From: an uncultured bacterium
Lineage (GTDB): Bacteria; Actinomycetota; Actinomycetes; S36-B12; CAIKAW01
Direction of reading: 5' to 3'
Length of the DNA stretch: 64,000 nucleotides
NCBI GenBank assembly: GCA_903825575.1
Contig: CAIKAW010000031.1
Coordinates: 3,469 to 67,468, forward strand
Part shown: positions 44,605 through 59,282 of the stretch, in pieces
Position numbering within the stretch: the first letter of the stretch is position 1
Layout of the letters: each line of letters opens with the position of its first letter
Position numbers and translations under genes: made by a program
The notes under the pieces: model-generated
Seen by the model: only the letters and a program-made list of their open reading frames with translations
Databases searched by the model: none
Told to the model about the DNA's origin: nothing

Positions 44605-46257
44605 TCACTTATCCGCCAACAAAGTAAGGCCGTAAGCAACCGCCCACCGATGCCCTAGCTTGACTCCCACGTTGCCACGGCCAATCAAATGGTGAGGTAG
44701 AACGGCTCCAAGTGCGATTAGGAGCTCTTCATCACCGGCCGGTCCACCAACCAGGAGCAATTCGTTTGGATCAGCACCGTTAAGAGCGCGCACGACATTG
44801 ACACCAAGAATCTCGGCCTTCAGACGCAATCGAAGTACTCGCCATTCCGAGGGCGACAAGCGCCGGTGGAATGGTAGGAGCCCTGCAGGTCCGGCTACGG
44901 CCAGGGCCCCAACGAGGTCTGCGGGCGCCGCACTTGTTAAGAAGTCCCTTTGTCCATCTTCACCCACCAAGACATGAGGATTGGCTACCAGACTCGATGG
45001 TCCACGTTTAACCCAGTCTGCAGCCCCGTGAGGGATCCCCAGGACTGTTGCAACTGCCAGTGTCAGTAGCTCCCCGCCTCCCGCGCACGATACGGCTCCT
45101 ATCGTTCCAGCCATCGCATCAACGGTTCCGCCGCCAAGATCTATTACGGTAGTTCCAGATTCGGAGCCGGGGGTGCTCAGGGCGCCGGTCTGCCCTGCTA
45201 ATGATTCCGACCCCAACAAATGAACGGGGCGCGCAGTCAGATCGCCCACTAATTGGATCGGGTCAACGCTGTCTGGGGCGTTGGTAGACAGCGCGGCCAG
45301 GGCCAGACCGACTTCGTTCGGTCGGGCCCACACGCTGGATGCAGCCTCGCGCAGATTGATTCCGAAAAGGTCTGCCACTTCGGCGCTGGATCCTTCGACA
45401 GACCAGGCGCTTGCCCGATGTCGACCATCTCGGATCTGAGCTAACGCATCCAGGATTGGAAGCCGAAGCCGCCCGCCATCCAGATCGATCCAATCATTGG
45501 ACGAAACCGGATGCGTTGGTGAAGCGGTCGCGTTTCGAGCGACCAATATGGCCCGTTGTCCAGCGTTTTGATCGGCAAGTGCACCGGCGATCACTCGATC
45601 CGAAATTGCGAAATCGGTTGCGAGGCGGAAGGGGTCGGCAAGGCGTGAGACTACGTGGCCGATAGCCGCCACCTCGATTCCCACAAGATCGGCGGCGAGG
45701 GCGGCAGCTGCGTCGATCTCGTCGATGATCGGAATATCCCAGGCGCAGCGATTAGCCAAGAGCACGCCTTCATCTCCGGCGGTTGCAATGCCTTGGATAC
45801 TCAGACCAGCACCAGCCCATGCGTCCAAGATGGGCAGAATGTCTCGAAAGCCCATACCGCGCCTGGCAATGGCAATGATTGGGGTCGCTGACGCCGGCAT
45901 TGGTCCGCCCAGATCGATTGGTATGGCCAAGGCAAAACCGGGCCGGCCTGGGGTGGCGCTTCGATTCGACAAGATCTGAAATTGCCCAGTCGGTATTGGG
46001 GGATCAGGGATAAGCCGAACACCAGTCTCAACCGGTACTTGTCCAGTAATAACGACAAGGTCTGCGACTAAACCAGAATCGCGCTCAATTCGAGACAGCA
46101 ACCGAGCTGCATGTTGCCAGGCTCCGGCTGAACCTTTGCGACCTCGAGTTGGGGCCCGATCCCATGCCAATGGAGTCCAGCGCTCGGCTGTTCCTGCTCC
46201 GGCCAACACAATTTCGGTAGTCGAGTTGCCGACGTCGATTCCGGCGACGATGCTCAT
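44605..46257 (-). CDS. pduG: Diol/glycerol dehydratase reactivase, large (alpha) subunit homolog
   Basis: N-terminus MSIVAGIDVGNSTTEIVLA (compare PduG/DdrA MRYIAGIDIGNSSTEVALA). ATPase motifs VIDLGGGTVDA, GGGELLT, LLLVGGPAGDEEL and GRGNVGVKLGHRWAVAYGL. ATGA overlap with the small-subunit stop. Confidence 0.85.
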   Translation of the reverse strand: MSIVAGIDVGNSTTEIVLAGAGTAERWTPLAWDRAPTRGRKGSAGAWQHAARLLSRIERDSGLVADLVVITGQVPVETGVRLIPDPPIPTGQFQILSNRSATPGRPGFALAIPIDLGGPMPASATPIIAIARRGMGFRDILPILDAWAGAGLSIQGIATAGDEGVLLANRCAWDIPIIDEIDAAAALAADLVGIEVAAIGHVVSRLADPFRLATDFAISDRVIAGALADQNAGQRAILVARNATASPTHPVSSNDWIDLDGGRLRLPILDALAQIRDGRHRASAWSVEGSSAEVADLFGINLREAASSVWARPNEVGLALAALSTNAPDSVDPIQLVGDLTARPVHLLGSESLAGQTGALSTPGSESGTTVIDLGGGTVDAMAGTIGAVSCAGGGELLTLAVATVLGIPHGAADWVKRGPSSLVANPHVLVGEDGQRDFLTSAAPADLVGALAVAGPAGLLPFHRRLSPSEWRVLRLRLKAEILGVNVVRALNGADPNELLLVGGPAGDEELLIALGAVLPHHLIGRGNVGVKLGHRWAVAYGLTLLADK

Positions 46258-46634
46258 TCAGGCTTGGCCAGTCCACGACGCTGATAGGTGCGACTGGCTT
46301 CCCTGACTAATTCCGCCACCAACGGCGCGCCTCTGGAATCCAAACTGTCCGCCAATTCAAACAAGTTTGAGGCGGTCGAGCGGTACGGACGTAGCGCTTC
46401 ATAGATACCCATTACCTCTTCATCGGGGATGCTCGTTAGCTCCGCTGCGCGCAGGAGATTCTCCGACAGATTCGGATTGCCATGAGCTGCGGCAACGCTG
46501 GCCTGATGCCGAAGGGTGTTCGGATGGATCCGGACGTCATCGATCGAAACTTCTCCGCGTCGGACAGTATCAAGCGTCACTTCTGATAAGGGGCGCTCGG
46601 AATACCCATATGCGTCAACATTTCGTTCGCTCAT
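46254..46634 (-). CDS. pduE: B12-dependent diol/glycerol dehydratase small (gamma) subunit, lacking an N-terminal extension
   Basis: VRIHPNTLRHQASVAAAHG..LLRAAELTSIPDEEVMGIYEALRPYRST..ELADSL..LVREASRTYQRR aligns with the PduE/DhaB3 core. 126 aa. Confidence 0.88.
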   Translation of the reverse strand: MSERNVDAYGYSERPLSEVTLDTVRRGEVSIDDVRIHPNTLRHQASVAAAHGNPNLSENLLRAAELTSIPDEEVMGIYEALRPYRSTASNLFELADSLDSRGAPLVAELVREASRTYQRRGLAKPE

Positions 46635-48853
46635 ACCAGCTCCAAGGTCTCGGGAACATAAACGTTGCTACAACTACGCTCAATGGCCACTAGAGAGATG
46701 ACTTTGGTGTGGTAACGCGCCTCTATCGCTTCGTCACTGTAGGGATTGCGAGCCGGCTCAGGTGTGCTTCCCTTGGCATGACGGCCCGCATTTGTGCCCA
46801 ATAGTCGATACAACTCGCGAGTCACCGTCGGAGCGACGCTGTATAACTCGAGGTTAGCTAGCGGAGTCAAGTCGCGTCGATGAATGAGCGCAGTGCCTTT
46901 GGCCTGAAGTCCGATTGAGATTCCCGACCCAGACAGCTGTGCTGCAGTCAGTCCCAGGCGGCCCAGATCAATCGTGTCGTTCACCCGCACTATTCGACCT
47001 ATGCACCCTTCCTCCTCGAGGCCGGCAAGGAGTTCTTCAAGTACGTCGACTACAAGCAGTCCCGATAATGTTTGCCATACTTCTCGTCCGACTGCCGGCG
47101 ATACCCCGATAACCACATCACGAGGATCAGTACTCAGAGTGGCCGCACCAGTTGATCTAAGGCGATGACTGCTGTGCTGCTGTTGCTCGGCGCGGAGGTC
47201 TGCGACGGATCGTTCTTGTCGAATACCATCGATTTCCGCCTGGCGCGCTGGTGTTGGCACGTAACCCGTACCTGGTCCGGCGTAGTCATTGGGGTCCGTT
47301 ACCAGCGAGAGCACATTCCATTGCTCGTCAAAGATTGCCGCGGTATGCAGATAGTCGCCATGTACGCGCTGCTGCAACATCGTCAGCATTCGCCCCGCCT
47401 CTACCTCATATCCGCAGTCGGCTAGCGCGGTCACAACATCGAGCATCGTGATGCCAGAATCACGCACGATACGCGCAGCATTTAGGGGCGTCATGAGATC
47501 GGCTGCGGGAATGTCCTTGGAACCGGCCGCATCTATGGCTTGAGCTGCCCACTCGTCGCTGAAGTCACCGAGTCCCAGGTACCGGTAGACATCACGTACC
47601 GCCGAGACCGCCCGCTCCCGTAGCGATTCGAGGGCATTCATGTCTGTTGAGCGAAGACCACCATCGACCCCCCAATCCCGCTGCATGGCGAGGAAGTCGT
47701 CGATATCCTCCGAATTCCACTGACTCGGGCCGAACATGTTGTCGTAACGCTGGATCGAACCGAAGCCACTGCAGATGTAATCCGACCCCGCAATGAAGAT
47801 TGGATGCGTTCGAGAGGTCCGGCGGACGTCCGACTCAGACATCAAGGCGTCGTTTCCAGTACAGGCTTCAAGATTGCGAGCCATGACCATTAAGTTCTCG
47901 GCCATCAAGGAGCGCACTCCGCCGGGCACTGAACTGGCCACTGACGCAGAATCGATGCCTCCGTTCTGGACACCCTGCGCACCAATCGCACGTGCCAGCG
48001 AAACGCACCGCGCTTCAAGGTAGAACATCGAACGCTTCTCAGCCCCGCCCATCAAGGCTTCGGCGCCGCCACCGGAGGTGACCCGCATCTTGATTCCCCG
48101 CGATGCGTACGCCGAAGTCAGGAAGGCCTTGGACCATGGAGAATCGTCGCCGTCTACGAAAATCTGCTCGGTCCCGTAAAGCGAGACTGTTTCCGCGTAG
48201 GACACAAGTCCGCGCAGTCCCATCCACAATTCCAGGGCTTCTTCCACAGAACATTGAACTAGAACTCCGGCGGATCCAACTGCCGCGCCGATACTGACAG
48301 CGATCGCGTTGGAGGGGGCATCTCCGAGAACCGGTACGGTCGTCTCAATCTCGCGAAACCCAAACGCCGCTGCCGTTGCAGCATCTGCACTTAGCAAAAG
48401 CGGGTCATCGCTGCGATTAGTGACGTGGGCCTGATTGCTTGGTGTCCGGCGGGCTCGCATTTTCGTCATAGCGATGACCAATTCGGCCGGACGTAGCAAT
48501 GTGATGATCTCAGCCAACTTGGCCGGGGTCATGCCCGCTACAAGCCTAACAATCTCGCTGCGGGAAACATTTGGATCAATGAACATTCTCGCCGCGACAA
48601 GATTGTCAAGGGCCATTGCCTCAATGGCAACATCTAGATCGATTCCGTGGGCCGCAATAAAGGAGTCAATTGCATCGAACTCGGAAGCTGGTCGCGAGTC
48701 CAGCTCCGTGACTTGCCCCTCAGAAATGACTAGCGAAGGAATCGGGTCGTGGGGTGAGGCAAAGGCCACCAGACCTAAATCGACATCAGGGACTGCAAAG
48801 CCGTCAAGATTAACTCTCTGCTCATCCATGAATCGGATGCGACCGATTGTCAT
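46631..48853 (-). CDS. B12-dependent diol/glycerol dehydratase, large (alpha) and medium (beta) subunits fused in one 740-aa polypeptide
   Basis: Residues 1 to about 545 match PduC/DhaB1 (KMRARRTPSNQAHVTN, REIETTV, YAETVSLYGTE, GAQGVQNG, SESDVRRT, ICSGFG, DNMFGPS, GDYLHTAAI, DPNDYAGPGTGY). Residues about 579-740 match the PduD/DhaB2 core (VVIGVSPAVG, EEEGCIGRIVRV, LSGSGISIGLQAKGTALIHRRDL). A linker of about 33 aa (QERSVADLRAEQQQHSSHRLRSTGAATLSTDPR) joins them with no stop. Confidence 0.9.
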   Translation of the reverse strand: MTIGRIRFMDEQRVNLDGFAVPDVDLGLVAFASPHDPIPSLVISEGQVTELDSRPASEFDAIDSFIAAHGIDLDVAIEAMALDNLVAARMFIDPNVSRSEIVRLVAGMTPAKLAEIITLLRPAELVIAMTKMRARRTPSNQAHVTNRSDDPLLLSADAATAAAFGFREIETTVPVLGDAPSNAIAVSIGAAVGSAGVLVQCSVEEALELWMGLRGLVSYAETVSLYGTEQIFVDGDDSPWSKAFLTSAYASRGIKMRVTSGGGAEALMGGAEKRSMFYLEARCVSLARAIGAQGVQNGGIDSASVASSVPGGVRSLMAENLMVMARNLEACTGNDALMSESDVRRTSRTHPIFIAGSDYICSGFGSIQRYDNMFGPSQWNSEDIDDFLAMQRDWGVDGGLRSTDMNALESLRERAVSAVRDVYRYLGLGDFSDEWAAQAIDAAGSKDIPAADLMTPLNAARIVRDSGITMLDVVTALADCGYEVEAGRMLTMLQQRVHGDYLHTAAIFDEQWNVLSLVTDPNDYAGPGTGYVPTPARQAEIDGIRQERSVADLRAEQQQHSSHRLRSTGAATLSTDPRDVVIGVSPAVGREVWQTLSGLLVVDVLEELLAGLEEEGCIGRIVRVNDTIDLGRLGLTAAQLSGSGISIGLQAKGTALIHRRDLTPLANLELYSVAPTVTRELYRLLGTNAGRHAKGSTPEPARNPYSDEAIEARYHTKVISLVAIERSCSNVYVPETLELV

Positions 48854-49284
48854 GACGCGGATTCCTTCAGATAGACATCTAAACCGGCTTCAGCGGCAGC
48901 AAGATCTTGAGCGGCAGTGCCGCCGCTAACTCCGATGCCGCCGATTACGCGATTACCATCCCATAGCGGCAGACCACCAGCAAAGCAGATGTATCGGCCA
49001 CCAGCGGCCGCCGAAAGTCCAGCCAATTCGGCCCCCGGCGACGCAAGTTCAGTGAGTTCATGGGTCCCGGCGCGATGGGCCGTGGCTGTATAGGCCTTGT
49101 CTACGGCCAAGGTAGGGCCCGCGATTTCGGCGCCATCCATCCTCGAGAAGGCGACTAGATTGCCGCCTGCATCAACCACAGCTGCGGAGACCAACGCCTG
49201 ATTTGCCGCAGCGCTGGAAGTTGCTTCCCGAACCATTCGGCTCGCGAGTTCCAGATCTATTTCCCAGCGATTAACTCGTGGCAT
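48850..49284 (-). CDS. GlcG/HbpS-like (DUF336, PduO C-terminal-domain-like) protein
   Basis: 144 aa: AAVVDAGGNLVAFSRMDGA..TLAVDKAYTA..GGLPLWDGNRVIGGIGVSGGTAAQD. ATGA overlap with the dehydratase start. Confidence 0.8.
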   Translation of the reverse strand: MPRVNRWEIDLELASRMVREATSSAAANQALVSAAVVDAGGNLVAFSRMDGAEIAGPTLAVDKAYTATAHRAGTHELTELASPGAELAGLSAAAGGRYICFAGGLPLWDGNRVIGGIGVSGGTAAQDLAAAEAGLDVYLKESAS

Positions 49285-50330
49285 TAGCGGACTCCTTCAA
49301 GATAGGCGGCGGCTTGCCTTCGTAGCCGTTCGTGAACTCCGCCCATGGGCGCAACCCCGTGCAACAGGTGTTTGGGGAACTTCGCCACCATCGTGTAGAC
49401 GACATCAACCACGTTCGCAACGGGGGAGAGCACCGCTTGAGCAACTAGCTGGTAGCTGTCGAGCGTCGATAATCCAGTCAGTTCCGAAACCCAGTAGATC
49501 AACTGTTGTTGTGAGATTCGGAAGGCGTCTTCCAGCGGCTTGGTCGATCCGGTCGTCATGATGAAATCGTCGGATTCCAATTTTGGCCAAGGCGTTGCGA
49601 CTGCTTTGATGAGGTCGACGATCACTACCGAATCCATCGCCGTCTCAACGGCAACGCCGCAGGTTTCTCCTTCCCCCTGACGCGCATGACCGTCGCCAAA
49701 ACTGAACATTGCACCTTCGACATTCACTCCGAGATAACAGGTCGTGCCAGCCCGCATCTCAGGGGTGTCCATGTTTCCACCCCAATCCCCTGGGGCCAGA
49801 GATGAGCGAACCTCACCTAGGGCGGGCGCGACACCAACAGTTCCGTGCATCGGATCAAGCGGAAGCTCGGCGGTGTAATGAGTGTCCCGGGCCGAATAGT
49901 GGACCAAGCGGGCCGCCAAATCCAATTCGTAACGCCACGTGCGTTCTGCTAAAGCCGGATGCAGCAGGGCAGTTGTCGGGGTGGCAGTCAGGGCACCGAA
50001 CAAGGGAACAGTGCTGCTTACACCCCAGGCATACCTAGGTTCAATGCTGACGAAGTGCACGGCCAGTGTGTCTCCAGGCTCGGCGCCTTCGATGTAGAAC
50101 GGGCCAGTTTGGGGATTCAGTTGGCGCGGGTCACATACCTGACTCGCAAGGTCCGACTCTTGTCGAACTCGTCCCACGAAACAGTCGTGAGTCCAAGTGC
50201 GCAACAGGCTGCCAGGACGAAGGGATGCAACAGGGGCGGCGCCGCCAAACGTGAAGGTTAGTCCGGCCGGATCTGCATCAGCATCATGGTCAAAATCGAC
50301 AATTTGAGCCTGGTTCACGGATATCTCCAT
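49284..50330 (-). CDS. Acetamidase/formamidase family amidohydrolase
   Basis: FmdA/AmdA-type motifs: TGPFYIEGAEPGDTL, GGNMDTPEMRAGTTCYLGV, FSFGDGHARQGEGETCGVAVE. TAATG overlap with the DUF336 gene. Confidence 0.8.
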   Translation of the reverse strand: MEISVNQAQIVDFDHDADADPAGLTFTFGGAAPVASLRPGSLLRTWTHDCFVGRVRQESDLASQVCDPRQLNPQTGPFYIEGAEPGDTLAVHFVSIEPRYAWGVSSTVPLFGALTATPTTALLHPALAERTWRYELDLAARLVHYSARDTHYTAELPLDPMHGTVGVAPALGEVRSSLAPGDWGGNMDTPEMRAGTTCYLGVNVEGAMFSFGDGHARQGEGETCGVAVETAMDSVVIVDLIKAVATPWPKLESDDFIMTTGSTKPLEDAFRISQQQLIYWVSELTGLSTLDSYQLVAQAVLSPVANVVDVVYTMVAKFPKHLLHGVAPMGGVHERLRRQAAAYLEGVR

Positions 50331-50411: not shown

Positions 50412-52034
50412 TCAGCGCTCGTGCGCTTCTTCAAGCACAGTACGTCCAATTGCCTTGTAGACCTCTGGCTGAGCAGAACGCAGCCACAGGGCGATCACCA
50501 GTCCGAAGATAAATGTCGCCAATGCAATGAACGGGATGAGCTTGTAGAACAAAGACCCTGATGCCGCTCCACCGGCGAATGCCAGGTTCGAGAACAACAG
50601 GTAGACCACGTAGAGCATTCCAAGACCGCCTAGGGCCGGAATGATTGCGGTGGTCCAGATGTCACCGTGGTGAACCTTCTTCACATGGAAGTACCAGATT
50701 ACTGACACCGAGGTCACCGACTGCACGATGAGGATCGCCATCGTGCCCAGAAGTGCCAACAGACCGTACTCGTAGATATAGCCACCCTGCAGAACATCGC
50801 TGCCATGTGGCGTTAAGACGTAAAAGCCGATTGTGAGCAGCAAGGTGATAACGCTCTGAACACCGGATGCGATGTGCGGCGACTTGTGCTTTCCGTGCGT
50901 GGCGCCGAGGTTGTTGTGCAACGCAGGGACCTCGCGGCCGATCGCGTACATGTACCGAGCGGCGGCATTATGGAAAGCCAATGCACAAGCAAATGATCCA
51001 GAGACGATAAGGAATACGTAGATGTACGTGACCCAGTGACCACCCAAGTTGGCCTGAGCTAGGTCGGTGAACATTCCGATCGAGTTGTTCGCTGCCTGGT
51101 CGATCGCGTGCTTGCTGCCATTGCCAGCGATGACCATCCATGAGACGAAGGTGTAGAACAGGCCCAAACCGATAACAGCGATTAGCGTCGCACGAGGAAC
51201 GATGTGCTTGGGGTTGCGCGATTCCTCCCCGTAAACAGCTGTGGTCTCGAAGCCAATCCAAGACCAGAATGCGAAGAACAGCCCGATGGCTGCGGCGCCG
51301 GCCACAAGTGGTGCGCCACCCATCTGGACTCCAAGACCGCCACCGGTTGGCAACGACTTAAATGCGTTTGCTGGGTTGATTGAAGAGAGCATCAGTCCAT
51401 CAGGACCGCCGCCCTTGAAGAGCACCGAGAAAGCCAGTGCAGTCAGCAGGATTACTTCGCAGACCAAGAAGAATCCGAGGACGGCCGCTGCGATGCTGAT
51501 GTCGTAGTAGCCAAAGACTGCCACGATCGCAATACCGACCACTGCAATAAGCAGCCAACTCACGTTCAGGTTGAACCACGTGATCAGTGCGTCATTCGCG
51601 AAGTACGCGAAGATGCCGATCAGTGATCCTTCAAAGACGATGTAGGCCATTGTGGCCAGTAGGCCAGTGGCCATTCCCCAGATCTGGCCGAGGCCCTGGC
51701 TGACGAAGCCGTAGAAGGCGCCAGCTGTTGTCACGTGCCTGGCCATGGCGACGAAGCCGATTGTGAACAACGTCAGCACGATAGTGGCGAGCGCGTAACC
51801 CGCAGGCGCGAAAACCCCATTGCCGTAGGCGACGGCAATGGGGACGTTGCCGGTCATGGCGGTGATAGGAGCGGCATTTGCCAGCGACATGAAGAGCACG
51901 CCAGCTAGCCCGATCGCTCCGACCTTGAGCTTGTTCGCGCTTTCTGCCCGGGGGACCGGGGCGTTCTCAAATTGCTCCGTATTGATGCCTGACACGGGAC
52001 CTCGCTTCATCTCTAGCGGATAGGACACAGCCAA
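50412..52034 (-). CDS. APC-superfamily amino acid/amine permease
   Basis: About 12-14 hydrophobic helices with APC-type N-terminal motifs (LKVGAIGLAGVLFMSLANAAPITAM). Start ambiguous (TTG 52034 or ATG 52010). Confidence 0.85.
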   Translation of the reverse strand: MAVSYPLEMKRGPVSGINTEQFENAPVPRAESANKLKVGAIGLAGVLFMSLANAAPITAMTGNVPIAVAYGNGVFAPAGYALATIVLTLFTIGFVAMARHVTTAGAFYGFVSQGLGQIWGMATGLLATMAYIVFEGSLIGIFAYFANDALITWFNLNVSWLLIAVVGIAIVAVFGYYDISIAAAVLGFFLVCEVILLTALAFSVLFKGGGPDGLMLSSINPANAFKSLPTGGGLGVQMGGAPLVAGAAAIGLFFAFWSWIGFETTAVYGEESRNPKHIVPRATLIAVIGLGLFYTFVSWMVIAGNGSKHAIDQAANNSIGMFTDLAQANLGGHWVTYIYVFLIVSGSFACALAFHNAAARYMYAIGREVPALHNNLGATHGKHKSPHIASGVQSVITLLLTIGFYVLTPHGSDVLQGGYIYEYGLLALLGTMAILIVQSVTSVSVIWYFHVKKVHHGDIWTTAIIPALGGLGMLYVVYLLFSNLAFAGGAASGSLFYKLIPFIALATFIFGLVIALWLRSAQPEVYKAIGRTVLEEAHER

Positions 52035-52168
52035 GCGATCTTCGGCTTGATCGGTGTTGAGGCATGTTCCCAGTGCCAGCCAACCGAATCAAGTACCTCG
52101 GGCAACCGAAAGGATTGGGTTTCTTGTCATGGTTGCCGCCCCGGATTGAGTTCAACCTATTGAAAACG

Positions 52169-52206
52169 GATATATCGGACAGGCTGCCGTACAGAATCCC
52201 TAGGGA
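52169..52206. promoter_or_regulatory. Two perfect palindromes in the divergent control region (GATATATC and TCCCTAGGGA)
   Basis: GATATATC at 52169-52176 is AT-rich and could also be a -10 element. TCCCTAGGGA is at 52197-52206. Both are exact self-complements by inspection. Confidence 0.35.
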
Positions 52207-52241
52207 ACCCGAACTGGGGGAACTTTTGACAACCAATTGCG

Positions 52242-52276
52242 TACCAAAGCCTTCCAATCGGTCTGGTGCTTTGGTA
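52242..52276. promoter_or_regulatory. Candidate operator: 9-bp perfect inverted repeat TACCAAAGC-N17-GCTTTGGTA overlapping the putative BMC-operon promoter
   Basis: Left arm 52242-52250, right arm 52268-52276. TTCCAA (52252-57) and TATGGT (52275-80) are spaced 17 nt apart and look like -35/-10 elements. GGAGG at 52299-52303 precedes the GTG at 52310. Confidence 0.4.
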
Positions 52277-52309
52277 TGGTGAAATTGTCCAGCCCAGCGG
52301 AGGTGCCGA

Positions 52310-53599
52310 GTGAGTCACGATTACGGATTCTTCTCGTTCGAGTCCAAGGACGAGGTGCTGGCCAAGTCCAAGGAATTCTGGAACCCAGGCAAGACACAGT
52401 TCTGGATTGACGAGGGCGTGCCGCTAGTGATCGACAGGCGCGAGGGCTACTTCATCTATGACATGTCCGGCAAGCGCCTGATCGATACCCACCTCAATGG
52501 CGGCACCTACAATCTCGGGCATCGGAATCCTGAAGTTGTTTCGGCTATCGAGTCCGCGATGACCCATTTTGACATTGGAAACCACCATTTTCCTTCCCTA
52601 GCGCGCACCGCTTTGGCCGAGGCCTTAATTGCTGGTGCACCCCCCGGGCTGACCAAGGTGGTCTACGGCTCAGGCGGTGGTGAAGCTATCGACATTGCGC
52701 TCAAGACAGCCAGACATGCCACCCAGAAGCGCAAAATCGTTTCGATTGTTAAGGCCTACCATGGCCACACTGGACTGGCAGTCGCTACCGGGGACGATCG
52801 TTTTTCTAAGCTATTCCTATCCGAGCAGCCGGATGACTTCCCACATGTGCCGTTCAATGACCTCGCGGCCATGGAAGAGGCCCTTGTGGGCCGCGATGTA
52901 GCAGCGGTGATCATGGAGACGATCCCAGCGACCTACGGCTTCCCTCTTCCGAACCCCGGATATCTAGAGGCGGTCAAGGCCATGTGTGAACGTTATGACG
53001 CGCTGTACATCGCCGACGAAGTCCAGACCGGACTTATGCGTACTGGCGAGTTGTGGGGGATCAGCAAGCACGGAATATCGCCCGACATCATGGTCACCGG
53101 TAAGGGGATTTCCGGAGGCATGTACCCGATCTCGGCCGTGCTCGTGAATGAAAAGGCAGCGGGCTGGCTCACTGAGGACGGTTTTGGGCACATCTCTACC
53201 TTCGGTGGCGCAGAAGTGGGTTGCATCGCCGCGTTGAAGAGCCTTGAGATTTGCAGTCGTCCTGAGACTCGTTCGATGGTGCACTACATCAGCGATTTGA
53301 TCGGTCGCGGAATGCGCTCAATTCAAGATCTCTACCCCGATTGGTTCGTGGGAATCCGCCAGAACGGCGTAATCCTTGGCTTGGAATTCGCCGACCCGCA
53401 GGGTGCCAAGTTCGTGATGCGGCGCCTTTACGAGCATGGGGTTTGGGCGATCTTCTCAACACTTGACCCGCGCGTGTTGCAATTCAAGCCCGGGCTGTTA
53501 CTTACTCCTGAGCTGTGCGAGGAGTTGCTAGATCGCGCCCAAGTCGCCATCGGGCTAGCCAGAGACGATGTCGCGCGCGCTGGAAGGAAGGCCAGCTGA
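52310..53599 (+). CDS. Class-III aminotransferase-fold PLP enzyme (candidate amino-alcohol O-phosphate phospho-lyase)
   Basis: Class-III motifs GGGEAIDIALK, ADEVQTGLMRTGELWG and PLP-lysine context MVTGKGISGG. First gene of the BMC operon. The phospho-lyase role is inferred by analogy to the RMM locus. Confidence 0.8.
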   Translation: MSHDYGFFSFESKDEVLAKSKEFWNPGKTQFWIDEGVPLVIDRREGYFIYDMSGKRLIDTHLNGGTYNLGHRNPEVVSAIESAMTHFDIGNHHFPSLARTALAEALIAGAPPGLTKVVYGSGGGEAIDIALKTARHATQKRKIVSIVKAYHGHTGLAVATGDDRFSKLFLSEQPDDFPHVPFNDLAAMEEALVGRDVAAVIMETIPATYGFPLPNPGYLEAVKAMCERYDALYIADEVQTGLMRTGELWGISKHGISPDIMVTGKGISGGMYPISAVLVNEKAAGWLTEDGFGHISTFGGAEVGCIAALKSLEICSRPETRSMVHYISDLIGRGMRSIQDLYPDWFVGIRQNGVILGLEFADPQGAKFVMRRLYEHGVWAIFSTLDPRVLQFKPGLLLTPELCEELLDRAQVAIGLARDDVARAGRKAS

Positions 53600-55140
53600 T
53601 GCCTGAACTGCTTGTTGAATCGGCCGGTGTTCCTAGGGCCCGGGCCATGGTGGCGCGCGCAGAATGGGCGGCGCGCACTTTTGCCACGTATGACAAACCG
53701 TCGGTAGACCGCATTGTGCGGGCCGCAGCCAAAGCCCTCGCAGATCACGCTGCTGAGTTCGCTAAGGCCGCCGTTGCCGAAACCGGGTTCGGCGTGGCCG
53801 ATCACAAGGCGCTTAAGAACCTGGCCTGTTCAACCGGCTTGGTCGATCATTACCGGGACCACGACTATGTGACTCCGCGAATAGATGTCGACGCCAAGAT
53901 TGTGGAAGTCCCGCGTCCTGCCGGTGTGATCTTCGCGTTAACCCCCTCGACGAATCCGGTCGCCACTACATCGTTCAAGATCCTGCTTGCCCTCATGACC
54001 CGTAGCGCAGTGATCGTGAGTCCGCATCCATTGGCTAAGGACGTTTGCTCTGCTGCCGCCAAGGTGATGGCCGAGGCGGCCTTAGCTGCCGGCGCCCCTG
54101 ACGGTGTCATCCAATGGGTTGCCGAACCTTCGATCCCACTCATCAACGCTTTGATGACAGATGAGCGAGTGGATGTGATCGTTGCCACTGGCGGAAGCGC
54201 AGTAGTTCGGTCCGCATATCGAAGTGGAAATCCGGCAATCGGAGTTGGGCCAGGGAATGTGCCTGTCCTTGTGGATCGAACGGCAGATATCCCAGCCGCA
54301 GCAGCACGCATCATTGAAAGTAAGAGTTTCGACAACTCGATTCTTTGCACGAACGAGAGCGTTGTAATTGTTGAATCAGCGGTTGCGGACAAGTTCGTTT
54401 CGGCCATGGTGCACGAGGGAGGTTTCCTACTCAACCCTGAGGACCGCGATCGAATCCGCGAACTGGTGTTCCCCGACGGGCATTTCGATATCCGATTCGT
54501 TGGCAAGGATGCAACTTGGATCGCGGCAGAGGCCGGGATCAGAGTCCCTGCGAACACGAAGGTCCTTATCGCGCCATTCGACCTAGCCGTACCCGAAGAA
54601 CCGCTGGCCCATGAAAAACTGTGTCCAGTACTTGGTTTGATCAAAGTTCCTACGGCGGCCCGCGGCATCGAGGTTGCGCGAGCGGTGCTGCGGATCACTG
54701 GTGCAGGCCATTCTGCGGCCATCCACTCACGAGATGCTCAAACCGTGCTGGCATTTGGCGCGGGCGTGCCCGTCTACCGAGTTTCGGTAAACGTCGGGAA
54801 CAGCTTGGGGAGCTCGGGCATCCATACGAACCTGGCTCCATCCATGACCATCGGAACCGGCTACGCCGGGCGATCATCCGTAGGCGAGAACCTTCAGCCA
54901 TCACATTTGATTCACTGGACAAGACTGGCCTACAACGCCGATGTGCGCGAAGTTCTCCCAGATTTCACGGGGCTATCACCATGGACTGCCGCAACGGGCA
55001 GCGTGCCGCCTTATCCGCAGGCGTCTAACTTGAGTACCGCAAATGTCGCACCACCGCGCGCCCAGGACGACGCCACTGAACTCCGCGAGGAGATTCGCCG
55101 GCTGATCGTCGAAGAGCTTCATCAGATAATCAAGGGCTGA
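53599..55140 (+). CDS. CoA-acylating aldehyde dehydrogenase (EutE/PduP class) with a C-terminal extension
   Basis: ALTPSTNPVATT, ATGGSAVVRSAY, GVGPGNVPVLVD and catalytic-Cys context FDNSILCTNES. ATG 53599 forms a 1-nt TGATG-type (TGA/ATG) junction with the upstream stop. Confidence 0.88.
   Translation: MPELLVESAGVPRARAMVARAEWAARTFATYDKPSVDRIVRAAAKALADHAAEFAKAAVAETGFGVADHKALKNLACSTGLVDHYRDHDYVTPRIDVDAKIVEVPRPAGVIFALTPSTNPVATTSFKILLALMTRSAVIVSPHPLAKDVCSAAAKVMAEAALAAGAPDGVIQWVAEPSIPLINALMTDERVDVIVATGGSAVVRSAYRSGNPAIGVGPGNVPVLVDRTADIPAAAARIIESKSFDNSILCTNESVVIVESAVADKFVSAMVHEGGFLLNPEDRDRIRELVFPDGHFDIRFVGKDATWIAAEAGIRVPANTKVLIAPFDLAVPEEPLAHEKLCPVLGLIKVPTAARGIEVARAVLRITGAGHSAAIHSRDAQTVLAFGAGVPVYRVSVNVGNSLGSSGIHTNLAPSMTIGTGYAGRSSVGENLQPSHLIHWTRLAYNADVREVLPDFTGLSPWTAATGSVPPYPQASNLSTANVAPPRAQDDATELREEIRRLIVEELHQIIKG
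55072..55137 (+). other. Putative C-terminal encapsulation peptide of the aldehyde dehydrogenase
   Basis: The last 22 aa, ATELREEIRRLIVEELHQIIKG, form an amphipathic helix pattern. They are separated from the catalytic core by a Pro-rich, low-complexity linker (SPWTAATGSVPPYPQASNLSTANVAPPRAQDD). Confidence 0.6.
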
Positions 55141-55143
55141 ATC

Positions 55144-55746
55144 GTGGCTGAACTGCGTTCCTTCATTTTCATCGATCAACTGCAGCCGCAGACGATGTGT
55201 TACCTCGGGACGTGGATCCGAGGGGCATTACCCAGATCGAACATGGCCGCCCAGATTATTGAGGTTGCACCCGGGCTTGATATTGAACCCTTGACCGATG
55301 TGGCACTTAAGCACGCTGAAGTGCAGGCGGGGATCTTGGTCGTGGAACGCCAGTTTGGGTATCTCGAGCTTCATGGGCCCACTGCTCAGGTGCGGGCGGC
55401 CGGAGCAGCTGCACTTGAGGCTTTAGGCGCCAATGAGACCGACGCATTGAAGCCTGAGATTCTAGCTTCGCGCATCATCACGATGATTGATTCGCAGCAT
55501 GCCTTCCTAATCAACCGGAACAAGGTTGGTTCGATGGCACTGCCAGGCGAATCCCTATTCGTTCTGGAAATGCAACCTGCGTCCTACGCCATTCTTGCCA
55601 CGAACGAGGCTGAGAAGGCCGCACGAATCAAGGTTGTCGACTATCGGATGATCGGTGCAACGGGCCGGGTGTACTTGACCGGCAAAGAGGCTGACGTCAG
55701 GCAAGCCGCGGAAGCGGCCGAAGTTGCCCTTCGGAACGCGCGATGA
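55144..55746 (+). CDS. Tandem BMC-domain shell protein (BMC-T class), paralog 1
   Basis: 200 aa made of two repeats with a BMC-domain pattern (..IIEVAPGLDIEPLTDVALKHAEV..LELHG.. and ..LEMQPASYAILATNEAEKAARIKVV..GRVYLTG..). Paralogous to 56802-57455. Confidence 0.8.
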   Translation: MAELRSFIFIDQLQPQTMCYLGTWIRGALPRSNMAAQIIEVAPGLDIEPLTDVALKHAEVQAGILVVERQFGYLELHGPTAQVRAAGAAALEALGANETDALKPEILASRIITMIDSQHAFLINRNKVGSMALPGESLFVLEMQPASYAILATNEAEKAARIKVVDYRMIGATGRVYLTGKEADVRQAAEAAEVALRNAR

Positions 55747-56201
55747 GTGGTGATTGGACGGGCAGTTCAGCCGACTTGCGGGCTTTGGTCCGTGAGGTAC
55801 TTCGTGACGCCGTACCGAAGAATGACGCGCAAGAGGTTCCGGCTACCGCACCTGCCCAAGTAACCGCTCCCGCAGTGGTGGAGCCGATCTCGATCCGTTC
55901 CGATGCGGACCTTGCAGCGTTCGTTCAACGGGTGCTGGATGCCGCGGCGGATCCAGGGACAGCTGCTGCTCTGCGCTCAGGCCGGGTTAAGTTTGTGCTT
56001 GCCGGCGCCGCTAGTCCGATGGAAGTGTCGACTCCGCGGGCTGCTGGATATCGAGTGGAGCGCGGTGCGGTAACCGAACGCCACGTGCGCGAGGCTGCCG
56101 AAGTCGGGACCACGTTGATTCTTGGCAGTCGGGCCGTGTTGACTCCTTTAGCAAAGGATCGTGCGCGTACTGCCGGAATCACGATTGAGAAGGAGAACTG
56201 A
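55743..56201 (+). CDS. BMC-associated protein of unknown function with an N-terminal encapsulation-peptide-like helix (possibly PduM-like)
   Basis: 152 aa. It begins SADLRALVREVLRDAV (amphipathic) followed by a Pro/Ala linker (PKNDAQEVPATAPAQVTAPAVVEP). A second helix, SDADLAAFVQRVLDAAAD, and the C-terminal AVTERHVREAAEVGTTLILGSRAVLTPLAKDRARTAGITIEKEN complete it. ATGA and TGATG overlaps join it to the flanking shell genes. Confidence 0.6.
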   Translation: MSGDWTGSSADLRALVREVLRDAVPKNDAQEVPATAPAQVTAPAVVEPISIRSDADLAAFVQRVLDAAADPGTAAALRSGRVKFVLAGAASPMEVSTPRAAGYRVERGAVTERHVREAAEVGTTLILGSRAVLTPLAKDRARTAGITIEKEN

Positions 56202-56449
56202 TGCTTCGCGCGAGAGTCGTAGGCAATGTATGGGCGTCTAAGCGCCTACCCGAAGTTCCTAACGGCGCATTCCTGGAAGTTGTAATTGAAGAAGGCGGCG
56301 CTCATCTGGTCGCCTTCGACGTCTTAGGCAGCGGGATTGGTGAAAGGGTCTTGGTAACAACTGGCTCCGTCGCCGCAGCTTGGTTCCCGGGCAACCCGCC
56401 GCCGATTGATGCGCTAATTATTGGCTCTATCGACGAAGTAGCGAACTGA
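56201..56449 (+). CDS. BMC vertex pentamer protein (BMC-P; EutN/CcmL family)
   Basis: 82 aa: MLRARVVGNVWASKRLPEVPNGAFLEV...GERVLVTTGSVAA...DALIIGSIDEV. RBS GAAGGAG lies upstream. Confidence 0.9.
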   Translation: MLRARVVGNVWASKRLPEVPNGAFLEVVIEEGGAHLVAFDVLGSGIGERVLVTTGSVAAAWFPGNPPPIDALIIGSIDEVAN

Positions 56450-56479
56450 CCGATACGCGGCGGTTCCGCGACCCAAACT

Positions 56480-56498
56480 CCGTGACAACAGGTCACGG
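56480..56498 (+). promoter_or_regulatory. Small perfect hairpin in the 68-nt gap preceding the BMC-H gene
   Basis: ccgtgac-aacag-gtcacgg (7-bp stem, 5-nt loop), about 10 nt upstream of the AAGGAGAAG RBS of the BMC-H gene. This is the only sizeable gap inside the shell cluster. Confidence 0.25.
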
Positions 56499-56517
56499 TG
56501 ATCGACAAGGAGAAGAC

Positions 56518-56805
56518 ATGTCGAACAATGCAATTGGATTGATCGAGACCAAGGGCTATGTTGCGGCACTTGCTGCGGCTGACGCGATGGTTAAGGCCGC
56601 CAACGTCACTATCGTTGGTCGCGACGAGGTTGGCGATGGCCTTGTAGCCATCACGATCGTTGGCGATGTTGGCGCAGTCAAGGCTGCCACTGAGGCTGGG
56701 GCCGAGACGGCTGGCTCGGTGGGCGAATTGGTATCCGTGCACGTGATCCCGCGTCCGCACCCTGAGCTTGCCAAGCACTTCAACGTATCCGGCGAAACCT
56801 CGTGA
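56518..56805 (+). CDS. BMC hexamer shell protein (BMC-H; PduA/EutM type)
   Basis: AIGLIETKGYVAALAAADAMVKAANV...GDGLVAITIVGDVGAVKAATEAG...SVHVIPRPH is a canonical single BMC domain. ATG 56518 lies behind AAGGAGAAG. Confidence 0.93.
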   Translation: MSNNAIGLIETKGYVAALAAADAMVKAANVTIVGRDEVGDGLVAITIVGDVGAVKAATEAGAETAGSVGELVSVHVIPRPHPELAKHFNVSGETS

Positions 56806-57455
56806 GCACGGTCCCGCCACCAGCGGGACCGGAGCTGCGCGTTTACCTGTTGGTATCAGATCTGCAGCGACAATTCGCTGCGTATCTGTCTACTCCGACG
56901 CGAGCTCGTGGCTATCCGCCGTTCGAGGGCCAGCATTCCCTCATCGTCGAAGTAGCCCCTGGGCTCGCTATCGAGCGGGTGATCGATTTGGCGCTGAAGT
57001 CCGTTCCGGGTATCGAGCCGGGGATCCTCTTCGTCGAACGGCAGTTCGGGGTGCTCGAATTGCATGGCACCGAACTTTCGGATGTCCTGGCAGCTGGGGA
57101 CGCCATCCTTGCTGGTTTGGCTGCCGAAGCTACGGATCAATTGCGGCCGCGCGTTCTGTACAGCGACGTGATTGAGAACATTACTGACCAGCACGCAGTA
57201 ATTATCAATCGCAATCGTCAAGCATCTATGGTCTTGCCTGGCGACACCTTGTTGGTTTACGAAGTGACACCCGCACTCTTCGCAGCCGTGGCAGCAAATG
57301 CGGCCGAGAAGGTTGCACCAGAGAACACTTTGGTCGACGTGCAGATGATTGGTGCGGCTGGACGGGTCTACATCAGCGGTACCACAGCGCAAGTGGAATT
57401 GGCTCGCGCCGAAATCACTCGCGTGCTCGAGGGGATAGCCGGCAGAGATCACTGA
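56802..57455 (+). CDS. Tandem BMC-domain shell protein (BMC-T class), paralog 2
   Basis: 217 aa with the same two-repeat architecture as 55144-55746 (LRVYLLVSDLQRQ.., IVEVAPGLAIERVIDLALKSV.., VYEVTPALFAAVAANAAEKVA.., GRVYISG). GTGA overlap with BMC-H. Confidence 0.8.
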   Translation: MSTVPPPAGPELRVYLLVSDLQRQFAAYLSTPTRARGYPPFEGQHSLIVEVAPGLAIERVIDLALKSVPGIEPGILFVERQFGVLELHGTELSDVLAAGDAILAGLAAEATDQLRPRVLYSDVIENITDQHAVIINRNRQASMVLPGDTLLVYEVTPALFAAVAANAAEKVAPENTLVDVQMIGAAGRVYISGTTAQVELARAEITRVLEGIAGRDH

Positions 57456-57469
57456 ATAGGGGTCATGAC

Positions 57470-58462
57470 GTGGTAATCAAGGTAGATGTCGGCGACGATC
57501 GGCTCGAGGCGTTCGCGCGGGCAGCTCTAACTCAATATGGCATCGGCCCCGATGCCACCCTGTCACTCCTAAATATCTCCGAGAACGCCACTTACCAGGT
57601 GGACGATCCTGCAAGTGGTAAGAGAACCGTCCTTCGGATCCACCGTCCCGGCTATCACTCGCGCGCTGCAATCGAGAGTGAATTGACATGGTTGAACACT
57701 CTGCGCGATAGCCAAGTGGTGCGTACCCCGGCCGTTCTGCCCGCGACCTCCGGCGACGGTGTGGTTCTAGCCGCAATCGCCGGAGGGGAAACTCGCCAAG
57801 CTGTGATGTTCGACTGGTGTCCTGGGATCGAACCTCCCGAAGATCGACTGGTCGAGGATTTTCACCAGTTGGGCCAGATCACAGCACGGCTGCATGAGCA
57901 GGCCAAACACTGGCGGCGACCTGCGAATTTCACCAGATTCACTTGGGATTTCGAAACTTCCTTGGGTGAGCATGGGCATTGGGGGAGTTGGCGAGACGGA
58001 ATGGGTGTGGGCCTGGAAGAGGCTGAGGTTCTCGGACGAGCCGCGAGCCTTATGGACCGCCGTTTGCAGGCTTTCGGCGCCGGGCCTGACAAGTTTGGAT
58101 TAATCCACGCAGATCTGAGATTGGCCAACCTCCTATTAGACGGCGATGACATCTACGTCATCGATTTCGATGACTGTGGATTCGGTTGGTTCCTGTACGA
58201 CCTCGGCTCCGCCGTCTCCTTTATCGAGCACTATCCGCAAATCCCCGAAATGGTGGCTTCGTGGTCTGAGGGCTACCGAACCGTCGCTCCGCTCAGCGCG
58301 GCGGATGAGCGGGAATTGCAGACATTCATAATGTTTCGGCGACTACTTCTGGTGTCGTGGATTGGCACTCACTCGGGAACGGATATTGCCGTAGCACTGG
58401 GCGAGGAGTACTCCGCCACAAGCTGCGTGTTAGCTGAACGGTACCTTTCAGAATTCTCGTGA
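57470..58462 (+). CDS. APH-family phosphotransferase (candidate amino-alcohol kinase)
   Basis: Kinase motifs GLIHADLRLANLLLDG (HxDxxxxN) and YVIDFDDCGFGW (DFD). Position matches the aminopropanol kinase of RMM-type loci. Confidence 0.8.
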   Translation: MVIKVDVGDDRLEAFARAALTQYGIGPDATLSLLNISENATYQVDDPASGKRTVLRIHRPGYHSRAAIESELTWLNTLRDSQVVRTPAVLPATSGDGVVLAAIAGGETRQAVMFDWCPGIEPPEDRLVEDFHQLGQITARLHEQAKHWRRPANFTRFTWDFETSLGEHGHWGSWRDGMGVGLEEAEVLGRAASLMDRRLQAFGAGPDKFGLIHADLRLANLLLDGDDIYVIDFDDCGFGWFLYDLGSAVSFIEHYPQIPEMVASWSEGYRTVAPLSAADERELQTFIMFRRLLLVSWIGTHSGTDIAVALGEEYSATSCVLAERYLSEFS

Positions 58463-58499
58463 CTCGGGGCGTCTGACCCCGACCGCTTCGGAGGCATTG

Positions 58500-59282
58500 A
58501 TGAACGCATTCTTGACTGGGTATTCGGTAATCGTGACCGGTGGCACCAAAGGGATCGGGAAGGGCATCGCCCGCAGTTTTGTAGAAGCCGGAGCCAATGT
58601 CCTGATCACAGGTCGCGATGAACTCAGCGCGAAGAGTGCTGTTGCGGACCTGATCGCAATTGGCCCTGGGTCAGCCTCCTACACGCTAGGCGATGTAGCG
58701 AAACGGGCAGATATGCAAGCAATGGTGAAAGTGGCCCTGGAACGCAACGGCCGCATCGATGTGCTCTGCGCCAATGCTGGCATCTTCCCCGATTCTCGGC
58801 TCGATGTAATGTCCGAGGACGACTGGGACTTGGTCTTCGATACAAACGTCAAGGGAAACTTCCTAGCTCTTCAATCGTGTCTGGCTGCCCTTACCGATTC
58901 GGGTCGAGGACGGGTTATCCTGACTTCGTCAATTACCGGTCCAATCACCGGGTTCCCCGGCTGGTCGCACTATGGGGCCAGCAAAGCGGCACAACTGGGC
59001 TTCATGCGAACGGCGGCCATTGAACTGGCTAGCCGAGCAATCACGGTTAACGCTGTCTTGCCAGGCAACATCGCAACTGAAGGCCTTGCCGATCTTGGCC
59101 CGGAATACCGCCGGTCGATGGAGGCAGCAATACCCGTTGGCCGATTGGGTGAGGTGGCCGATATCGGTGCAGCTGCTGTCTTCTTTGCGAGCCCGCAAGC
59201 GGCTTTTATCACCGGGCAGGCCCTTGCCGTAGACGGCGGCCAAACTCTGCCCGAATCATTGGCTGCTTTGGATAGTCAATGA
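58500..59282 (+). CDS. Short-chain dehydrogenase/reductase (candidate amino-alcohol/aminoketone dehydrogenase)
   Basis: VTGGTKGIGKGIA, NAGIF and S..YGASKAA catalytic motifs. ATG 58500 lies 5 nt after GGAGG. Confidence 0.8.
   Translation: MNAFLTGYSVIVTGGTKGIGKGIARSFVEAGANVLITGRDELSAKSAVADLIAIGPGSASYTLGDVAKRADMQAMVKVALERNGRIDVLCANAGIFPDSRLDVMSEDDWDLVFDTNVKGNFLALQSCLAALTDSGRGRVILTSSITGPITGFPGWSHYGASKAAQLGFMRTAAIELASRAITVNAVLPGNIATEGLADLGPEYRRSMEAAIPVGRLGEVADIGAAAVFFASPQAAFITGQALAVDGGQTLPESLAALDSQ

Follow-up and report, generated by a model that had tools for sequence, protein, structure and literature searches.

A naturally fused diol dehydratase in an RMM2-type microcompartment locus of an uncultured actinobacterium

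Natural fusions of the large (alpha) and medium (beta) subunits of diol and glycerol dehydratases have been described from Mesorhizobium loti and Mycobacterium smegmatis (Liu et al. 2010, as cited in PMC7674605) and, in 2016, from Hyphomicrobium (PMC4777399), and where the cited paper takes up these fusions it calls their active site 'slightly different' from that of the split enzymes. Dehydratase genes have also been described next to genes for bacterial microcompartments (BMCs). The RMM2 locus type, defined by Axen et al. (2014) as the RMM (Rhodococcus/Mycobacterium-type) core with diol-dehydratase genes on the opposite strand (PMC4207490), was retained by Sutter et al. 2021 (PMC8217296). 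Here, we present an analysis of a stretch of 64,000 nucleotides (hereafter the window) of contig CAIKAW010000031.1 from an uncultured actinobacterium (assembly GCA_903825575.1), with emphasis on a minus-strand gene at 46631-48853 whose product of 740 amino acids (aa) carries the alpha and beta parts of a B12-dependent diol/glycerol dehydratase in one chain. The best overall explanation, to which we give a probability of roughly 0.6, would be a fused dehydratase in an RMM2-type locus that is functionally coupled to the compartment and leans towards being packaged in it.

The gene is an uninterrupted frame of 740 codons in which both dehydratase domains are recognised. Pfam Dehydratase_LU (PF02286) is matched completely by residues 4-550 (E 1e-223) and Dehydratase_MU (PF02288) by residues 586-698 (E 2.5e-25), while the NCBIfam large-subunit model NF011979 is matched with 814.7 bits against a curated cut-off of 788, which passes the family threshold. 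The NCBIfam medium-subunit model (positions 23-194 of 219) aligns with residues 545-717; the beta part and the separately encoded small (gamma) subunit score under the full-length NCBIfam cut-offs because both are short forms. Among PDB chains, the separate alpha chains 1dio_A and 1iwp_A match residues 6-544, the separate beta chains 1iwp_B (its residues 13-167) and 1dio_B (48-201) match residues 563-718 and 565-719, respectively, and engineered Klebsiella pneumoniae alpha-beta fusions (PDB 9vii and others) are collinear with residues 8-718 (E about 1e-196). The alpha part, a TIM barrel, takes up residues 1-550 (47204-48853, minus strand) and the beta core, which has no C-terminal extension, residues 580-740 (46634-47116, minus strand). 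The Ca ligands and catalytic residues Q141, H143, E170, E221, Q296, D335, S362 and F374 are conserved, and all of them except F374 were recorded as identical to the Klebsiella enzyme and invariant in the alignment of relatives. The first-pass annotation of this DNA had proposed a true fusion of PduC/DhaB1 with PduD/DhaB2; all the PduC/DhaB1 motifs that it quoted are present, both domains are found in Pfam, NCBIfam and PDB comparisons, and its reservation that the C-terminal part might not be of the PduD type is answered by the matches to Dehydratase_MU and to the PDB beta chains. At the level of sequence, these comparisons show that the frame encodes the alpha-beta chain of an adenosylcobalamin-type diol/glycerol dehydratase, which together with the short gamma subunit should form the usual (alpha-beta-gamma)2-equivalent enzyme.

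Relatives of the fused chain are encoded in 197 species-representative genomes. The best 80 of these 197, labelled with L-numbers where single loci are named and used for all locus and junction comparisons below, are 71-81% identical to the query and match essentially its whole length (at least residues 4-726) in one segment. A total of 6639 homologues were scored, and both Pfam domains were present in all of the top 120. These matches show the chain to be one of a large natural family of fused dehydratases, for which the routine NCBI label is 'propanediol/glycerol family dehydratase large subunit'. The closest relatives come from metagenome-assembled genomes of freshwater-type Actinomycetota (Lac Pavin, Nanopelagicales, Kineosporiaceae), followed by Nocardioides, Streptosporangiaceae and Actinoplanes. 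A search of a representative library additionally returned other fused lineages, several of them only 44-51% identical to the query, and one split relative, mostly as fragments that give no basis for a census of fused versus split forms.

The junction between the two parts (residues 532-579; 47117-47260, minus strand) consists of a conserved motif from the alpha tail followed by some 18 variable residues. In the alignment of relatives, residues from about 537 to 557 (RQAEIDGIRQERSVADLRAEQ; RQxEIDxIRQQRSVxDLRxEQ) are strongly conserved and residues from about 558 to 575 are variable, and the beta core begins at DPRDVVIGVSPA. The conserved part aligns with the ordinary C-terminal tail of the Klebsiella glycerol dehydratase alpha subunit and the variable part with the first ~25 residues of the short beta subunit of glycerol dehydratase, and the region before residue 48 of 1dio_B, the beta subunit of Klebsiella oxytoca diol dehydratase, is absent; this residue corresponds to query residue 565, and the EP and linker of PduD-type enzymes lie in the missing region. 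From GY531 to DVV579 the fused chain counts 48 aa, compared to 50 aa for the Klebsiella alpha tail and beta head together, and the fusion is therefore a plain end-to-end join with nothing inserted. Alignment to known chains had been suggested earlier as a means of fixing the junction, and as far as the Klebsiella chains allow it to be read, it shows a normal alpha C-terminal tail joined directly to a short beta head of the glycerol-dehydratase type, with no added segment. In the 33-aa polar linker of the first-pass annotation (residues 546-578), the first part, like the residues just before it, is conserved alpha tail and only residues ~558-575 are variable. An AlphaFold2 model of the fused chain, built from 39 close homologues, was poor (mean pLDDT 57.6, barrel below 50) and was used for local confidence at the junction only, where residues 551-580 are ordered (pLDDT 78-94) and residues 550-558 are predicted to be helical.

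Upstream of the fused gene, by 3.5-11 kb, lies a divergent plus-strand operon (52310-60082) that encodes an RMM-type microcompartment. Its BMC-H, BMC-P and two BMC-T genes (55144-57455) lie 6.3-8.6 kb upstream of the fused gene and within the window, and tblastn with the Eut shell proteins of E. coli and then Pfam revealed the BMC-H, BMC-P and BMC-domain genes among them; the first-pass annotation, which had missed them, had proposed to look for shell genes near such fusions, and this is answered in the same window. Reading away from the dehydratase, the operon starts with the RMM signature enzyme, a class-III aminotransferase-fold protein (52310-53599), and an acylating aldehyde dehydrogenase (53599-55140, probable start ATG at 53599) which ends, after a Pro-rich linker, in a C-terminal encapsulation peptide (EP; ELREEIRRLIVEELHQIIKG, 55078-55137). 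These are followed by a BMC-T shell protein orthologous to MSM0275 of M. smegmatis (55144-55746; PDB 5l39, E 7e-98; Pfam BMC), a conserved 152-aa protein of no recognised family (55743-56201), a BMC-P (EutN/CcmL) vertex protein (56201-56449, Pfam), a BMC-H shell protein (56482-56805, Pfam) and a second BMC-T of 217 aa, the MSM0271 orthologue (56802-57455; PDB 5suh, E 7e-95). An APH-family kinase (57470-58462; Pfam; PDB 6ef6, E 2e-95), a short-chain dehydrogenase (SDR; 58497-59282, Pfam) and a GntR/UTRA (HutC-type) regulator (59279-60082, Pfam) complete the operon. The second BMC-T has no Pfam BMC domain, yet it is a clear MSM0271 orthologue that also matches BMC-T proteins of the CcmP/CsoS1D type, and Pfam-only scans would therefore undercount shell genes here. 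Together with the permease described below, the window holds the full RMM core set (permease, aminotransferase, aldehyde dehydrogenase, BMC-H, BMC-P, BMC-T, APH kinase, SDR and GntR), which the dehydratase genes adjoin on the opposite strand as in the RMM2 layout. Judged by its gene content, the locus is of the RMM2 type, that is, an RMM amino-alcohol cluster with diol-dehydratase genes.

The fused gene itself belongs to a minus-strand operon of six genes. The first is an APC-family amino-acid permease gene (50412-52034, Pfam), which is the permease of the RMM core (PMC4207490), followed by genes for an acetamidase/formamidase-family protein (49284-50330; Pfam; conserved in most related loci), an HbpS/GlcG-like (DUF336) protein (48850-49284, Pfam), the fused chain, the gamma subunit (46254-46634) and, as the last gene, a reactivase large-subunit (DdrA/PduG)-like ATPase (44605-46257; Pfam DDR and DDR_swiveling; PDB 2d0o_A). 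From the permease onward, the gaps are 81, -1, -4, -4 and -4 nt, so that the dehydratase genes are translationally coupled to one another and to the HbpS-like gene upstream of the fused gene and the amidase-family gene. The RMM permease gene lies on the same strand at a distance of 81 nt, which suggests that it is co-transcribed with them. The amidase-family gene is absent from all four same-strand related loci. The gamma subunit, whose start overlaps the fused gene by 4 nt, is a short form of 126 aa that matches Dehydratase_SU (PF02287) from Pfam position 21 and NF011972 from position 58. The reactivase is 550 aa long and diverges in its middle part (residues about 243-344); it matches 2d0o_A with E 2e-33, and TIGR04491 with 150 bits against a cut-off of 400. 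A small reactivase subunit (DdrB/PduH) was not found: in 55 related loci, no conserved open reading frame (ORF) lies 3' of the reactivase gene, and the window has neither a second beta-like domain nor a DdrB/PduH homologue. Possibly, the tethered beta domain makes the small subunit of the reactivase dispensable.

The two operons are separated by a divergent intergenic region (52035-52309). Within it, a 9-bp perfect inverted repeat could be read from the sequence (TACCAAAGC at 52242-52250 and GCTTTGGTA at 52268-52276, with a 17-nt spacer), starting 68 nt upstream of the aminotransferase start and with its proximal arm ending 33 nt before that start, and this repeat may be a GntR operator common to both operons. 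Outside this locus, the window carries genes that are usual for an actinobacterial chromosome (uvrC-rapZ-whiA-gap-pgk-tpiA, suf, ctaA).

The linkage of dehydratase and shell genes extends well beyond this window. Enough flanking DNA to judge shell linkage was available for 47 of the 80 related loci, and RMM shell genes were present in 42 of these 47, across several actinobacterial orders. The layout was divergent as in the window in 35, with the BMC operon downstream in 3 and co-directional in 4 (Streptosporangiaceae and others), the last with the dehydratase directly after the GntR gene at stop-to-start distances of -1, 5, 91 and 95 nt. Since RMM shell genes accompany the dehydratase in so many loci and in three arrangements, functional coupling of the dehydratase and the compartment is likely. 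The existence of a same-strand variant also weakens, if it does not remove, the strand argument of Axen et al. from 2014, and taken with the three gene orders and the 81-nt gap, the linkage would make a functional link much more likely than that argument had suggested. The aminotransferase-fold enzyme, which is accepted as the RMM signature enzyme, has no BMC-specific terminal extension either, and the dehydratase behaves like it in its phyletic distribution over the compared loci; the missing EP is therefore not decisive. In the shell-less Actinoplanes loci L069 and L080, which have kept the permease, aminotransferase, kinase, SDR and GntR genes and the dehydratase module, neither the aldehyde dehydrogenase nor the 152-aa protein nor any shell gene remains, a pattern that looks like loss of the compartment genes in one block.

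The pathway that we propose for the coupled system has two entries that would converge on one aldehyde. The dehydratase would dehydrate a vicinal diol to an aldehyde, in the simplest case 1,2-propanediol to propionaldehyde. The amino-alcohol branch of RMM compartments produces an aldehyde intermediate, and the product of the dehydratase would be an intermediate of the same kind, consumed by the EP-bearing acylating aldehyde dehydrogenase. The dehydratase genes would be co-transcribed from a promoter region that also serves the shell operon. Fusion probably gives stability to a beta subunit that is otherwise loosely bound, which would go together with the reactivase having a large subunit only.

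The location of the dehydratase in such a system was weighed against the encapsulation signals of the locus. The peptide of the aldehyde dehydrogenase is the sole classical EP in the locus; its pattern, ELR[DE]EIRRL[IV][IV]EEL..[IL][IV]KG after a variable Pro-rich linker, is kept in 41 of 41 relatives, and its helical hydrophobic moment is 0.55-0.58. A profile of this peptide, run on the six-frame translation of the window, recovered its own site only (E 1e-12, with the next hit at 0.35 elsewhere) and found no match in the dehydratase operon. The fused chain has neither an N-terminal extension (0-9 variable residues precede IGRFRFMD) nor a C-terminal one among the 80 relatives, and gamma has no N-terminal extension in the window or in any related locus, in agreement with the earlier statement that the beta part and gamma lack the EP-bearing extensions of PduD and PduE. 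The reactivase and the HbpS-like protein are likewise without extensions, and comparison of BMC-linked with shell-less loci revealed no BMC-specific extension on the aminotransferase-fold enzyme or the amidase-family protein and no feature of the fused chain or gamma that separates the two groups. The premise that PduD and PduE extensions are established EPs is only partly right: the predicted EP of PduE does not by itself target cargo (PMC4594438). In addition, PduC, which has no EP, can reach Pdu shells (PMC4594438), and an N-terminal extension is a feature of the PduE proteins associated with BMCs 'except for ... 4 Mycobacterium species' (Aussignargues et al. 2015, PMC4594438).

The first-pass annotation had posed the alternative that the enzyme is either not encapsulated or targeted by other means, and this is still the correct question, although the internal peptide that it offered for the second case is unsupported (see below). 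We consider the chances about even that the dehydratase is packed into the RMM compartment by peptide-independent cargo-cargo or cargo-shell contacts. The strongest rival, plausible although short of even odds, is a cytoplasmic dehydratase that is merely co-located and co-regulated with the RMM genes, its aldehyde being handled outside the compartment or diffusing into it. The absence of EPs and of distinguishing features just described would fit this directly. Several further points weigh against our preferred explanation. Loci that have neither shell nor aldehyde dehydrogenase genes (L069, L080 and L075) contain the same dehydratase module, its termini and junction unaltered; the module does not need a compartment. 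Adenosyltransferase and cobalamin reductase, which an encapsulated B12 enzyme is expected to need for cofactor recycling, are not encoded by any of the window ORFs scanned with Pfam. The substrate pocket, as described below, differs from the characterised enzymes at two substrate-contacting positions, so that 1,2-propanediol is an assumption. Finally, Axen et al. leaned towards an RMM2 compartment that does not use the dehydratase while allowing for a bifunctional one (PMC4207490), and the Mycobacterium PduE without extension points the same way (PMC4594438). Against a merely cytoplasmic enzyme stand the shell linkage in 42 of 47 loci over several actinobacterial orders and three gene orders, in one of which the BMC operon ends with the dehydratase genes, and the EP tag on the sole aldehyde dehydrogenase of the locus; the release of a toxic aldehyde into the cytoplasm beside a compartment built to confine it is hard to rationalise.

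If the dehydratase is recruited into the compartment, the 152-aa protein, which is MSM0274-like, or direct cargo-cargo contact would be a possible route. This protein combines one N-terminal amphipathic helix (residues 9-23, SADLRALVREVLRDA) with a disordered, Pro/Ala-rich linker, whose length differs widely between homologues, and a small alpha/beta domain (AlphaFold2 pLDDT 72) with the motif GAVTERHV...AVLTPLARDRAR. All of its 1333 homologues are labelled 'hypothetical', and no family or fold match was found in Pfam, NCBIfam, PDB sequences or Foldseek. Two EP-like helices had been considered in this protein, and AlphaFold2 places the second in the folded domain, which leaves one candidate EP. 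The protein is a candidate scaffold or adaptor of RMM compartments, adaptor if cargo is piggy-backed, and it belongs to the RMM core and is thus not specific to the dehydratase.

A second rival concerns the substrate and would be compatible with either location. The pocket residues Asp301 (codon 47951-47953, minus strand) and Ala336 (codon 47846-47848, minus strand) are invariant in all 80 relatives, compared with Ser301 and Gln336 in the characterised diol and glycerol dehydratases, and other fused lineages carry D/T, S/A or S/Q at these positions. Both positions face C3 of the substrate, with Ser301 facing the C3 hydroxyl of glycerol, and both the kinetics with glycerol and the inactivation are altered when either Ser301 or Gln336 is mutated (PMC7674605); inactivation by glycerol is about 5-fold slower in the S301A and about 14-fold slower in the Q336A variant of the Klebsiella oxytoca enzyme (PMC7674605, Table 1). 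The Asp301/Ala336 pair may be a sign of either a different substrate or resistance to inactivation. A substrate that is neither 1,2-propanediol nor glycerol, for example a vicinal diol with a cationic or hydrogen-bond-donating group at C3, such as 3-amino-1,2-propanediol, would explain the linkage to the amino-alcohol genes, the permease and the amidase-family gene, and it would also suit the persistence, in shell-less loci, of the linkage between the module and the aminotransferase, kinase and SDR genes. We nevertheless regard it as unlikely, as the Ca ligands and catalytic residues are all canonical, the Klebsiella Q336A and S301A enzymes still dehydrate 1,2-propanediol (PMC7674605), and no natural amino-diol candidate is indicated by any result. 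A more far-reaching version of the preferred explanation would join all of these features in a truly bifunctional RMM2 metabolosome, with an EP-less single-chain dehydratase recruited independently of peptides (e.g. via the MSM0274-like protein), a reactivase free of the small subunit and a substrate or inactivation profile adapted through Asp301/Ala336; we put this forward as a speculative model with low odds.

An internal encapsulation peptide at the junction, as the first-pass annotation had proposed for the stretch SVADLRAEQQQ, is highly improbable. The junction helix (SVADLRAEQ...) is indeed conserved, is predicted to be helical (residues 550-558) and lies between two domains. On the other hand, the hydrophobic moment of windows over this stretch is at most about 0.24, and at most 0.41 over the whole junction, far from the values of the genuine EP of the locus, and the helix has only two large hydrophobic residues. 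The stretch is part of the alpha tail that aligns with the ordinary Klebsiella tail, and the motif is equally conserved in related loci without shell genes (L069 and L080 from Actinoplanes, L075, L054 and L078). The low moment, this conservation and the lack of any hit with the EP profile show that the linker is not a targeting peptide; in addition, known EPs sit at chain ends, with a disordered linker between them and the rest of the protein (PMC4594438). That the fusion is an artefact of assembly or a frameshift, a concern the first-pass annotation had itself raised in the form of a frameshift or stop at the junction, has a negligible probability and is refuted by the identical 740-aa protein called in two independent assemblies (ERZ27299960 and SRR7053571), by the relatives in 197 species genomes, of which the best 80 match nearly the whole query in one segment, and by a junction motif conserved at the protein level.

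Two further observations concern the wider family. The representative library contains an 829-aa fused dehydratase (P0009), 44% identical to the query, with the canonical Ser301/Gln336, a polar, His/Lys-rich N-terminal extension of ~50 aa and a highly charged junction. Four contigs labelled Gammaproteobacteria or 'marine bacterium' (L053, L054, L058 and L075) encode fused dehydratases that are 74-76% identical to the actinobacterial ones, with gamma and the reactivase present and kinase, SDR and aminotransferase in some; shell genes were not found on these contigs, two of the four being too short to judge. They are the product of either horizontal transfer or mis-binning.

In comparison with known systems, the fused architecture, the RMM2 locus type and the missing extension of the small subunit are all already in the literature, and a fused dehydratase beside RMM genes is a further example of a known arrangement that adds little as stated. 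The published natural fusions have the large and medium subunits in one gene and the small subunit separate, as here, a comparison made at the family level. They differ in that no reactivase genes were reported in the fused-type genera (PMC4777399), whereas here a reactivase alpha-like gene follows gamma, and in that the papers on natural fusions (PMC7674605, PMC4777399) do not discuss a BMC context, whereas here BMC genes adjoin.

The PduCDE enzyme of the Salmonella and Citrobacter Pdu systems belongs to the same family as the fused chain and has the same catalytic residues, and an acylating aldehyde dehydrogenase inside the compartment consumes the aldehyde that it makes, as we propose here. 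Unlike the present enzyme, it is made of three separate chains; PduD starts with an N-terminal EP and a 22-58-aa linker, and an EP is predicted for PduE (PMC4594438), neither of which is found here. The Pdu system also has a Pdu-type shell, PduGH, PduO and PduS, none of which was found as such in the window: the PduL, PduO and PduS families were not among the matches in Pfam scans of the submitted window ORFs, where only PduGH was specifically looked for, and of the PduGH pair the PduG-like gene alone is present. DhaB1-3 of Klebsiella pneumoniae, which is not encapsulated, has a short beta and gamma without extensions, as here. Engineered Klebsiella fusions (PDB 9vii, 9vij, 9vi2 and others; PMC7674605) demonstrate that the alpha C-terminus and the beta N-terminus can be joined with activity kept; compared to these, the present fusion is natural and has no added linker, Asp301/Ala336, BMC neighbours and a large-subunit-only reactivase. 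A natural fusion with Ala336 and a one-subunit reactivase is a candidate for biotechnology; a more stable enzyme and slower inactivation by glycerol were the aims of the engineered fusions and Q336A mutants. The ATPase and swivelling domains of the reactivases DdrAB and GdrAB (PDB 2d0o, 1nbw) are recognisable in the window protein, although their large subunit has about 610 aa compared with 550 here, and the small subunit was not found in the window or in 55 loci.

The closest counterpart is the RMM2 type itself, which has the same gene set and the same opposite-strand layout as the window. It was described from Mycobacterium, whereas the relatives of the window are mostly uncultured freshwater-type Actinomycetota, Kineosporiaceae, Nocardioides and Streptosporangiaceae, and in some of these, unlike in the described RMM2, the dehydratase follows the regulator directly and is encoded on the same strand. 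A dehydratase that lacks targeting peptides and is nevertheless inside the compartment would imply a packaging route independent of peptides, and the comparison sharpens the question raised in 2014 of whether the RMM2 compartment uses its dehydratase.

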